Shown: positions 22,046-23,949 of the stretch, one piece after another
How positions within the stretch are numbered: the first letter of the stretch is position 1
How the letters are laid out: every line of letters starts with the position of its first letter
IMG/VR virus record: IMGVR_UViG_2778261393_000006
From: a virus
Taxonomy: Duplodnaviria; Heunggongvirae; Uroviricota; Caudoviricetes
Reading direction: 5' to 3' (one strand)
DNA length: 40,899 bases
Translations under genes and position numbers: made by a program
Notes under the pieces: model-generated
The model's database searches: none
Told to the model about the DNA's origin: nothing
Seen by the model: only the letters and a program-made list of their open reading frames with translations

Positions 22046-22837
22046 ATGAGCGAGAAATTAAAGATAGTCTATCGCCCATTACAAGAATTGTCACCGTATG
22101 CGCACAACGCCAGGACGCACAGTACTGAGCAGGTGGCACAACTGGTAGAAAGTATTAAGCAATTCGGCTGGACTAATCCGGTGCTGATTGACGAAAAGGG
22201 CGAAATTATTGCGGGTCACGGTCGTGTTATGGCGGCTGAAATGCTCAAAATGGATTCTGTTCCGGTCATTGTTCTGTCTGGCCTGACGGATGAGCAGAAA
22301 AAGGCGTACCGCCTGGCAGATAATCGCCTGCCGATGAATGCTGGCTGGGATGAAGATCTGTTGCGGATGGAGCTGTCGGACCTAATCAATGCTGATTTTG
22401 ATGTCTCCCTGACAGGCTTCATCCCGACAGAAATTGATGAACTGTTGACGGATGTTTTGCCCGGTACAGGAAATGAGGAGGAGCCGTATACGACGAAAAT
22501 TGATACGCCTGTTTATGAGCCGTCGGGCGGTAAACCGGATATCAGTGAACTGTACGACGATACGAAAACTCAGGAGCTGATCAGCCGGATACGTTCGGCG
22601 TCCCTTGAGCCTGATATTGAGAAATTCCTCCTGTGTGCGGCAGAACGTCACACGGTGTTTAATTTCAGCAGAATTGCGGACTATTACGCTCACGCCCCCT
22701 CTGAAATTCAGTGTTTTTTCGAGGAGTCGGCGCTGGTGATCATTGATTATCAGCAGGCTATTGAAAATGGATTTGTCCGGATGACGCAGCGCATGGTGGA
22801 GATCATGCATGGTGGTGAGGAGGAGGAATATGCGTGA
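22046..22837 (+). CDS. ynaK: ParB/Srx-fold nuclease-domain protein (full-length YnaK-like)
   Basis: 263-aa ORF; N-terminus (MSEKLKIVYRPLQELSPYAHNARTHS...IIAGHGRVMAA) shows the ParB-like nuclease domain pattern; N-terminal part matches the short K-12 YnaK as I recall; acidic C-terminus. Confidence 0.65.
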   Translation: MSEKLKIVYRPLQELSPYAHNARTHSTEQVAQLVESIKQFGWTNPVLIDEKGEIIAGHGRVMAAEMLKMDSVPVIVLSGLTDEQKKAYRLADNRLPMNAGWDEDLLRMELSDLINADFDVSLTGFIPTEIDELLTDVLPGTGNEEEPYTTKIDTPVYEPSGGKPDISELYDDTKTQELISRIRSASLEPDIEKFLLCAAERHTVFNFSRIADYYAHAPSEIQCFFEESALVIIDYQQAIENGFVRMTQRMVEIMHGGEEEEYA

Positions 22838-23762
22838 TGATTTTTGCGCCTTTATTCTGACTCACGGGCGACCGGACAAAGTTCTGACTTACCGGACGTT
22901 GCGTCGTGCTGGCTATACCGGGAAAATTTTTATCGTTGTTGATGATGAAGATAAGACACGGCATCAGTACATGGCTGAATTTGGTGAACAGGTGCTGGTG
23001 TTTTCCAAAGCCGATATCGCCAGTCGTTTTGACGAAGCCGATAATTTCTGTGACCGCCGCTCAATTTTTTACGCCCGTAATGCCTGTTTCGACCTGGCAA
23101 AACTGGTCGGGTGTAAATACTTCATTCAGCTCGATGATGATTATCACGAGTTCCAGTTTCGGGTGGATCGCAACTATGACCAGGCCTATTTTCCGATAAG
23201 GAAACTGGATGCGATCCTTTCTGAAATGCTGGCGTACTACGAATCAATACCTGCTCTTTCCATCGCTATGTCGCAGGGCGGGGATTTTCTTGGTGACAAT
23301 GGCGGCCATGCTTCGTGGGTGAAACGCAAGGCAATGAACAGCTTTATCTGTTCGGTTGATCGACCGTTCTCATTCATGGGGCGCATTAACGAGGATGTGA
23401 ATACGTACACGAATCTCGGTCGCTGTGGTGAATTGTTTATGACGATCGGTGCTGTCCAGTTAGGGCAGAAACAGACGCAGAAAAACAGCGGCGGAATGAC
23501 CGAGCTGTATCTGGATTCCGGAACCTACGTTAAAAGTTTTTACTCCGTCATGTATGCGCCGTCGTGCGTAAAAATCTCACTGATGGGTGCCAGCCATAAA
23601 CGCATTCACCATCAGGTCACCTGGAACAACGCTGCAGTAAAAATCCTTCACGAAAAATACAGGAAGAAGACACCCTGCATATCAATGGGGGTGACAAATG
23701 ATTCCGTATTCGAAAGTCGAGTCTCTGGCAGCGTGCCGGATGACTGCACAACAAATCGCTGA
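22809..23762 (+). CDS. Putative GT-A-fold glycosyltransferase-like protein (DxD motif)
   Basis: 317-aa ORF; N-terminal strand motifs CAFILTHGRPD and IFIVVDDEDK plus FIQLDDDYHEF resemble the GT2 pattern (xxVVDDGS ... DxD); no TM segments; assignment is by motif only. Confidence 0.4.
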   Translation: MVVRRRNMRDDFCAFILTHGRPDKVLTYRTLRRAGYTGKIFIVVDDEDKTRHQYMAEFGEQVLVFSKADIASRFDEADNFCDRRSIFYARNACFDLAKLVGCKYFIQLDDDYHEFQFRVDRNYDQAYFPIRKLDAILSEMLAYYESIPALSIAMSQGGDFLGDNGGHASWVKRKAMNSFICSVDRPFSFMGRINEDVNTYTNLGRCGELFMTIGAVQLGQKQTQKNSGGMTELYLDSGTYVKSFYSVMYAPSCVKISLMGASHKRIHHQVTWNNAAVKILHEKYRKKTPCISMGVTNDSVFESRVSGSVPDDCTTNR

Positions 23763-23949
23763 CGTTCTGGATGTTGATCTGAACCGACTGAAAGAAAATC
23801 GGGAAGCAATGACAGATTTTTATGCGGCCATCCGTAAGGGCAGAGCGAAAGGTGAAGCCGAGTTACGAGCGGCATTGTTTAAGCTTGCCAGAAAAGGGGA
23901 TGCCTTTGCTCTGCGCGAACTACTCAGGGTGGATAAAAATCAGGACTAA
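23698..23949 (+). CDS. Small HTH-containing protein (83 aa), possible packaging-associated DNA-binding protein
   Basis: ORF preceded by GGGGGTGA; HTH-like segment MTAQQIADVLDVDLNRLKEN; overlaps 3' end of upstream gene by about 65 nt in another frame. Confidence 0.35.
   Translation: MIPYSKVESLAACRMTAQQIADVLDVDLNRLKENREAMTDFYAAIRKGRAKGEAELRAALFKLARKGDAFALRELLRVDKNQD

Follow-up and report, generated by a model that had tools for sequence, protein, structure and literature searches.

The 40,899-nucleotide (nt) viral record IMGVR_UViG_2778261393_000006, the whole of which is called the window here, is a Rac-type lambdoid prophage. Between its trkG gene (20433-21908) and the terminase genes terS and terL sit three open reading frames (ORFs) encoding 263, 317, and 83 amino acids (aa), just where an original prediction, made from the sequence alone, had placed them. 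The first two encode a ParB-like protein, hereafter the partner, and a glycosyltransferase (GT) of the TAGT family; together they form the cassette that is our subject (Table 1). Strict linkage, translational coupling, and co-conservation argue that partner and GT very probably constitute one functional unit.

Table 1. Features of the cassette and its surroundings (window coordinates)
Feature	Position	Strand	Basis or remarks
Terminator-like hairpin	21995..22018	+	10-bp stem, 7 G-C pairs, then T-run; pattern scan; between trkG and cassette
ParB-like partner, 263 aa, full-length form of K-12 ynaK	22046..22837	+	Pfam, PHROG
ParB/Srx (ParB-CTPase-type) N-module, residues 1-135	22046..22450	+	Profile, structure, conservation
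Invariant linear motif Y-[TS]-x-K-I-x-x-P-x-Y-E-P, residues 148-165	22487..22540	+	Alignments
Orphan helical C-domain, residues 166-245	22541..22780	+	Model, conservation
Translational-coupling junction: Shine-Dalgarno GAGGAGGAGG 22817-22826, GT ATG 22830-22832, partner TGA 22835-22837	22817..22837	+	
TAGT-family GT-A glycosyltransferase, 310 aa	22830..23762	+	Pfam, PHROG, homologs
GT catalytic-signature codons	R14 22869-22871; D102-D104 23133-23141; E188-D189 23391-23396	+	
Small-terminase-like accessory ORF, 83 aa	23698..23949	+	PHROG
Small terminase subunit (context)	23953..25047	+	
Large terminase subunit, Terminase_6N/6C (context)	25019..26329	+	Pfam

The glycosyltransferase

The second ORF encodes a member of Pfam PF20691, TAGT ('TET-associated glycosyltransferase'), matched with E=3.8e-35 and 122.1 bits against a cutoff of 27.5; its residues 15-229 align to positions 4-205 of the 205-position profile. 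The motifs THGRPD, VVDDEDK, and LDDDY, from which a GT-A enzyme had been proposed, are present, and the profile search both upholds that assignment and sharpens it to one family. Across 13 homologs, the most distant of them 59% identical, R14, the DxD metal/nucleotide-sugar motif at D102-D104, and the Glu-Asp pair E188-D189 never vary. These residues fit the R...DDD...ED(Y/F) signature of validated phage GT-A enzymes acting on 5-hydroxymethylcytosine (5hmC) DNA, and of the trypanosome base-J glucosyltransferase, JGT. By sequence search, no TAGT relative is found among solved structures.

The ORF was first called at 317 aa (22809-23762). That reading frame exists, but its start was misplaced: the true one is almost certainly the ATG at 22830, giving 310 aa, because it agrees with annotated homologs, is preceded by the Shine-Dalgarno sequence GAGGAGGAGG, and overlaps the TGA of the partner gene. 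The junction, GAGGAGGAGGAATATGCGTGA, places a strong ribosome-binding site within the last codons of the partner gene, and the GT gene overlaps the partner stop by 8 nt. This overlap and the internal Shine-Dalgarno sequence indicate that partner and GT are translationally coupled. Related loci also show overlapping partner/GT junctions.

The TAGT family, which adopts the GT-A fold, includes the T2/T6 beta-glucosyl-HMC-alpha-glucosyltransferase, an enzyme that adds a second glucose onto glucosyl-hydroxymethylcytosine DNA. PHROG 842 gives the window GT that enzyme's name, and both proteins match PF20691 (122 bits for the window GT, only 37 for the T6 enzyme). This identity was considered and rejected: the GT shows no detectable similarity to the T6 enzyme, and the window contains neither an alpha-GT nor a hydroxymethylase. 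T6, in contrast, has an acceptor pathway of dCMP-hydroxymethylase plus alpha-GT, and no ParB partner. Membership in a defence system was rejected likewise, since PADLOC returned nothing for the GT and only a methyltransferase N-module match for the partner. Nor does any NCBIfam match assign the GT to another pathway.

The ParB-like partner: a shared N-module

The 263-aa protein matches Pfam ParB_N (PF02195) over residues 23-90 (29.3 bits; cutoff 26.3) and PHROG 620, 'ParB-like' (E=1e-90). It had been predicted to carry a ParB-like nuclease domain; the ParB/Srx fold stands, but the label 'nuclease' does not, because the N-domain is of the NTP-binding, ParB-CTPase type. In an AlphaFold2 model, confident for residues 1-135, the closest structures are CDP/CTP-bound ParB, Noc, PadC, and KorB (best Foldseek matches 6sdk, 7nfu, 7bnk, 6ryk, and 8qa9, with E from 1e-6 to 1e-5). 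Sequence-profile matches in the PDB are to Noc and ParB. Residues N21, G57, and N93 are invariant across phyla, and R60 is present in at least 90% of sequences. By sequence, N21, G57/R60, and N93 would correspond to the nucleotide-pocket motifs NPR, GxGR, and DN, R60 being the putative box II GxxR arginine and N93 the putative box III asparagine.

The full N-module of about 140 residues also has counterparts, at 30-46% identity, at the start of many phage DNA methyltransferases; these are adenine-specific enzymes, C5 enzymes, and proteins named 'DNA modification methylase' from Streptococcus, Lactobacillus, Pseudomonas, Yersinia, and Methanoculleus viruses. Further matches are to phrog_498 (E=9e-51) and to PADLOC MTase_II (E=1.5e-38), both of which represent fusions of ParB_N to a DNA methyltransferase; here the whole of partner residues 1-141 is homologous to the N-terminal module of these enzymes. 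Unlike those fusions, the partner has no methyltransferase domain. It carries instead a linear motif and a C-terminal domain (C-domain), and is paired in trans with a GT. Indeed, beyond ParB_N the partner has no helix-turn-helix (HTH), methyltransferase, or other Pfam domain.

A canonical partition ParB of the ParABS kind was also considered and rejected: the partner lacks an HTH, its TIGR00180 score of 38 falls far under the cutoff of 58, no ParA is encoded in the window, and the protein is acidic without a basic domain (median pI 4.6; net charge -22). The GT, by comparison, is basic in most lineages (median pI 8.9). Nothing supports naming these genes 'beta-glucosyl-HMC-alpha-glucosyltransferase', 'partition protein', 'nuclease', or 'transcriptional regulator'.

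The ParB-like partner: a new motif and domain

Downstream of the N-module, following a variable acidic linker, lies the motif Y-[TS]-x-K-I-x-x-P-x-Y-E-P. Among 25 sequences taken from different phyla, its residues Y148, P155, and Y157 never vary; a further alignment of 97 sequences shows the two tyrosines to be invariant there as well. The motif is predicted to be disordered. The helical C-domain that follows (residues ~166-245) is predicted with a local confidence score (pLDDT) of 91-98 and has a deep alignment. It belongs to no Pfam family, and no structural relative was detected. An exhaustive search found about 1,190 clusters (at 50% identity) that contain this domain, almost always at the C-terminus of 250-300-aa proteins.

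Two observations identify motif and C-domain, rather than ParB_N, as the core of the partnership. First, their conservation tracks that of the GT: measured against the window protein over one set of loci, the GT is conserved at 53%, the motif at 50%, and the C-domain at 47%, but ParB_N at only 30%. Second, in Vibrio phages of about 191 kb the gene before the GT encodes motif and C-domain only (139 aa, no ParB_N; hhalign E=2.8e-40; phage pv27, L136:2959-3378). The original prediction overlooked that the key part of the partner is this novel C-terminal motif plus domain. It also overlooked that the GT belongs to a TET/JBP-associated family and occurs without any such enzyme.

A variant partner was noted as well: P0249 (533 aa, L125:2849-4450), in which ParB_N, motif, and C-domain are fused to a domain of about 270 aa with a class-I SAM-methyltransferase motif (weak Methyltransf_11/23 matches). 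It was considered as a natural ParB-GT fusion and rejected as such, for it combines ParB-like and weakly methyltransferase-like domains and still precedes a separate TAGT gene.

Linkage and distribution

Loci encoding GT relatives, 122 in all, were retrieved from viral contigs plus one genome per species, and the linkage count was limited to the 114 in which the GT is preceded by 700 nt or more. In every one of these, a partner homolog ends at the GT start, nearly always overlapping it. Clustered at 90% identity, the GTs of these 114 loci fall into 41 groups; at 70%, they fall into 23. Because the loci had been retrieved through the GT, linkage was also examined in reverse: five of five diverse partner homologs directly precede a TAGT gene. 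The partnership with a glycosyltransferase put forward in the original prediction is therefore no accident: it is general, holds across phyla, and is very old.

The pair ranges over Enterobacteria, Bacteroidota, Firmicutes, Acidobacteriota, and Chlorobi, and extends to a haloarchaeal virus. Distant carriers, with GT identities of 42-59%, include Bacteroides, Dysgonomonas, Veillonella, Clostridia, Acidobacteriota, Prosthecochloris, Saccharibacteria, and an archaeal metagenome-assembled genome. Cultured viruses also encode the pair: Lactobacillus phage phi jlb1; the L. delbrueckii phages c5, LL-Ku, Ld17, phiLdb, and PMBT4; Nocardia phage NTR1; Porphyromonas phages; the ~191-kb Vibrio phages; and the haloarchaeal virus HHTV-2.

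Two metagenomic phage contigs also encode, 1-2 kb upstream of the pair, a further glycosyltransferase of ~350 aa that belongs to the GT2 family (L132:7905-8960 and L135:8199-9251). This arrangement hints at glycan extension.

Genomic position and expression

In distant loci the pair is followed by small terminases of several sorts (GP3_package, Sf6-type, and HTH types) and by large terminases of at least four families (Terminase_6N, Terminase_3, T7-type, and GpA). In phage NTR1, TerL directly follows the GT. In phage c5, the pair constitutes ORF1 and ORF2 and starts 90 nt from the cos end. The variety of terminase families implies that the pair is a mobile cassette, which in most cases stands first in the packaging operon regardless of the kind of terminase that follows. 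Other positions occur too: the pair that includes P0249 adjoins amidase and ERF/SSB genes, and that of Vibrio phage pv27 adjoins exonuclease and helicase genes, rather than terminase genes.

In the window, the prophage genes include int, recT/recE, sieB, a repressor-type HTH gene, homologues of ydaT/U/V/W, and an IS5-family insertion, together with a Q-like antiterminator, lysozyme, and Rz; trkG and then the head and tail genes come after them. The strong terminator-like hairpin that separates trkG, a moron, from the cassette probably halts trkG transcription; Q-antiterminated late transcription would be expected to read through it. Cassette expression would thus be late and Q-dependent, which disfavours a role in lysogenic conversion or prophage defence.

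Precedents

Until now, glycosylation of DNA in phages has been linked to hydroxymethyl- or hydroxy-pyrimidines that dedicated enzymes produce. The TAGT family was reportedly defined by Iyer et al. in 2013, who are also said to have discussed ParB proteins in modification clusters. That work lies outside our literature search, which found no paper describing or testing the ParB-TAGT pair; within this coverage, the pair is uncharacterised, as had been supposed.

The closest precedent is the phage thymine dioxygenase 5mYOX176, which needs an adjacent protein, ParB176, for activity on dsDNA (O'Toole et al., PNAS 2026, PMC13229309). ParB176-type proteins comprise an NTP-binding domain and a C-terminal domain, with no DNA-binding domain, and the commonest neighbours of phage 5mYOX genes are GTs (31%), ParBs (27%), and terminases (19%) (PMC13229309). 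The window cassette similarly sets a modifying enzyme beside a ParB-like protein that lacks a DNA-binding domain, an arrangement often found near terminase and GT genes. Its enzyme, however, is a glycosyltransferase rather than an Fe/2OG dioxygenase, and no dioxygenase accompanies it. The C-terminal part of the partner also seems to differ from that of ParB176, as compared by description rather than by sequence, in being an orphan motif plus a helical domain without detectable fold relatives rather than a recognisable ParB dimerisation domain. Together, the N-module shared with methyltransferases and the neighbours of 5mYOX genes bear out the earlier expectation that, in phages, ParB domains often go with DNA-modifying enzymes close to the packaging genes. 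A survey of ParB-CTPase folds describes methyltransferase fusions in phages, enriched in prophage regions; the word glycosyltransferase is absent from it (Kaljevic et al. 2025, PMC12704722). The ligands of these folds are CTP, ATP, or GTP, and their roles outside segregation are diverse (PMC12704722).

On the enzyme side, the GT shares its catalytic signature with the phage 5mYOX-associated GT-As and with JGT (Pyle et al., bioRxiv 10.1101/2023.12.21.572611), and like the former it is a soluble GT-A enzyme from a phage gene cluster. Those enzymes act on 5hmC or 5-hydroxymethyluracil (5hmU) supplied by a neighbouring methyltransferase plus TET, or by ThyS, whereas no such enzyme occurs with the pair. 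About 65% of 25,000 mined phage GT contigs have no base-modification neighbour, and were set aside as less obviously concerned with DNA hypermodification (Pyle et al., 10.1101/2023.12.21.572611). A survey found 'solitary' TAGT/GT-A genes, their function left open, in 288 of 753 phage genomes.

A proposed two-component glycosyltransferase

The reading that we favour, and hold only tentatively, is a late, two-component enzyme that glycosylates progeny phage DNA. The catalytic subunit would be the TAGT protein, a soluble and mostly basic GT-A enzyme expressed with the late packaging genes. The partner would serve as an acidic adaptor subunit built from the ParB-CTPase-fold N-module, the tyrosine-rich motif, and the helical C-domain. 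Motif and C-domain would dock onto the GT and activate it; the ParB module would couple the enzyme to duplex DNA, or gate it through NTP binding, roles suggested by the experimental precedent of the ParB-dependent thymine dioxygenases. Replicated phage DNA would then be glycosylated around the time of packaging, presumably blunting host nucleases. The acceptor would be something other than hydroxymethylcytosine (hmC) or hydroxymethyluracil (hmU), and as such new for any DNA glycosyltransferase. In favour of this reading stand the catalytic signature shared with DNA-acting enzymes, the family tie to the T2/T6 DNA glucosyltransferase, the strict linkage and co-conservation, the N-module that is common to phage DNA methyltransferases and resembles CTP-bound ParB, the need of 5mYOX176 for a ParB lacking a DNA-binding domain, the pairing of a basic GT with an acidic partner, and the place of the pair upstream of the terminase genes.

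Several points weigh against this proposal. The 40.9-kb window contains no TET/JBP enzyme, ThyS-type hydroxymethylase, or C5-methyltransferase. No such enzyme, and no other source of hmC or hmU, was found in the complete genomes of phi jlb1 (38 kb) and c5 (32 kb) or within 10 kb on either side in four further contexts. The 136 upstream neighbours fall into 49 Pfam families, and the 25 commonest of these include none either, being ordinary replication genes. Since no such enzyme accompanies the pair, the acceptor does not appear to be a phage-made hydroxymethyl-pyrimidine. Canonical DNA offers no hydroxymethyl acceptor, and we know of no GT-A enzyme that glycosylates an unmodified base. The T6 enzyme, which is the only biochemically defined TAGT, has a sugar and not a base as its acceptor, and its similarity to the window GT is undetectable in any case (BLASTP E at least 1.6; E at least 0.6 across tests; hhalign probability 0.1%). 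The partner is highly acidic and has no DNA-binding domain. The cassette stands away from the terminase genes in L125 and in Vibrio pv27. Mutations in the NTP pocket of ParB176 did not eliminate its activator role, which leaves the ParB analogy mechanistically unsettled (PMC13229309). Finally, GREB1, a eukaryotic TAGT-domain protein, is reported to O-GlcNAcylate a protein, ER-alpha.

This last report also speaks for the strongest rival, protein O-glycosylation, which we nevertheless judge rather unlikely. The acceptor would be Tyr148, Thr/Ser149, or Tyr157 of the partner, in a glycogenin-like priming or regulatory reaction, or else a recruited phage or host protein. GT and partner are the sole constant co-occurring proteins, whereas terminase and virion families vary. 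Moreover, the motif, with its two invariant tyrosines, conserved hydroxyl residue, and predicted disorder, resembles a docking or acceptor peptide and is retained even where ParB_N has been lost; the GT2-type enzyme present in some contexts could extend a glycan. The window GT shares its family with GREB1, and RefSeq and UniRef call it a 'GREB1-related protein', but GREB1 is large and eukaryotic, without ParB partner or phage context. An invariant motif could equally be a binding or activation peptide. O-glycosylation would also leave unexplained the partner's usual ParB N-module, the same as that of DNA methyltransferases. In addition, the catalytic signature of the GT matches DNA-acting GT-A enzymes, and its basic charge is that expected of a nucleic-acid enzyme.

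Less likely again is some other acceptor: RNA such as tRNA, a nucleotide or signalling molecule held in the ParB NTP pocket, or a host component, with a role in counter-defence or host takeover. The range of nucleotides and functions known for ParB-CTPase folds would accommodate such a role, no acceptor-generating enzyme is linked to the pair, and most of the phage GT contigs mined by Pyle et al. have no base-modification neighbour either. However, no positive evidence favours any such substrate, and the GT has no PADLOC or NCBIfam match to another pathway. A ligand of the ParB pocket could not be the universal acceptor, given that the Vibrio phages dispense with the NTP-binding module. Conversion of O-antigen or teichoic acid would call for membrane or periplasmic features that this soluble GT lacks, and the cassette spans Gram-negative, Gram-positive, and archaeal hosts.

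Very improbable, in turn, is a packaging accessory, in which the ParB-like protein would act in pac or cos recognition, cleavage, or terminase DNA handling, and the GT would be a passenger or degenerate: such a role would suit a cassette kept immediately upstream of terS/terL of several families, adjoining cos in phage c5, and including a protein that databases label 'ParB-like nuclease', but the GT has invariant catalytic residues and is the more conserved of the pair, hence not degenerate; linkage is to the GT and not to the terminase, from which the cassette is separated in L125 and pv27; the N-domain resembles NTP-binding ParB rather than a nuclease; and most Rac-type and other lambdoid phages package without the cassette, which only 867 of 5,426 E. 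coli genomes carry.

The boldest reading would have the sugar placed on an unprecedented substrate: either canonical, non-hydroxymethylated phage DNA, with the ParB fold as clamp or activator, or an invariant tyrosine of the DNA-associated partner. We regard this as doubtful. If true, it would reveal a previously unrecognised and very widespread phage modification system, present in many phyla and in a haloarchaeal virus.

ParB-assisted phage modification enzymes and TAGT glycosyltransferases are known; the ParB-TAGT pair appears to be new, with a substantial chance of new chemistry. One large subgroup of 'solitary' TAGT/GT-A genes turns out not to be solitary: these genes always have a specific partner with a new motif and a new domain. 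The partner usually carries the same ParB module as phage DNA methyltransferases. The pair presents a concrete two-protein system to reconstitute, and would extend the idea of ParB as an activator of DNA-modifying enzymes from dioxygenases to glycosyltransferases. A possible new DNA or protein modification in common E. coli prophages bears on restriction evasion, the targeting of defence systems, sequencing artefacts, and the design of phage therapy.

The cassette in Escherichia coli

The full region is present, at 80% coverage or more, in 867 of 5,426 complete E. coli genomes (~16%). RefSeq names the E. coli proteins 'ParB/Srx family N-terminal domain-containing protein' and 'GREB1-related protein'. 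Of this region, K-12 strains have nt 1-254 (ynaK) and no more; ydaY, a tape-measure remnant, lom, IS5, and stfR come next. The window thus holds the intact form of ynaK, as the original prediction had it. Many E. coli proteins in the databases share the first ~57-63% of the partner (window ~22046-22540) at 97-100% identity, beyond which their sequence is unrelated to it: Ail/Lom, tail-fibre assembly, NlpC/P60, or terminase domains. K-12 ynaK is one such truncation. The pattern suggests repeated, independent deletions with an endpoint inside the partner gene.

The 83-aa ORF had been called an HTH protein overlapping the GT gene. ORF and overlap (65 nt at the GT 3' end) are real, but the HTH call, for which Pfam offers no match, is plausible only. 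The product instead matches part of the small-terminase PHROG phrog_309 (E=8e-23). The ORF is kept after the GT only in Enterobacteria, and is outside the universal cassette. The E. coli GT has a C-terminal extension of ~22-25 aa, missing in other genera (~288 aa), which is the source of the 65-nt overlap.

A search for flanking repeats or a parS-like site near the cassette gave nothing convincing, and the peptide 'ATPPSPV', common to two ORFs, was dismissed as coincidence. Within the terS coding region, three direct copies of AAAANTGCGCAGA occur at 24091-24155, spaced by 36 and 15 nt, and encode a repetitive KTAQKSAQKKSAQTAQK stretch; they could be linked to pac recognition, or be merely a coding repeat. 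The IS5-family (DDE_Tnp_1/DUF772) transposase gene occupies 12667-13683 on the - strand, in the prophage early region beside a KilA-N gene. In three otherwise near-identical E. coli prophage loci (L042:10190-12508, L043:10163-12481, and L044:9761-12508), the terL ORF measures ~2.3-2.7 kb rather than 1.3 kb, which suggests an insertion such as an intein or a fused homing endonuclease.

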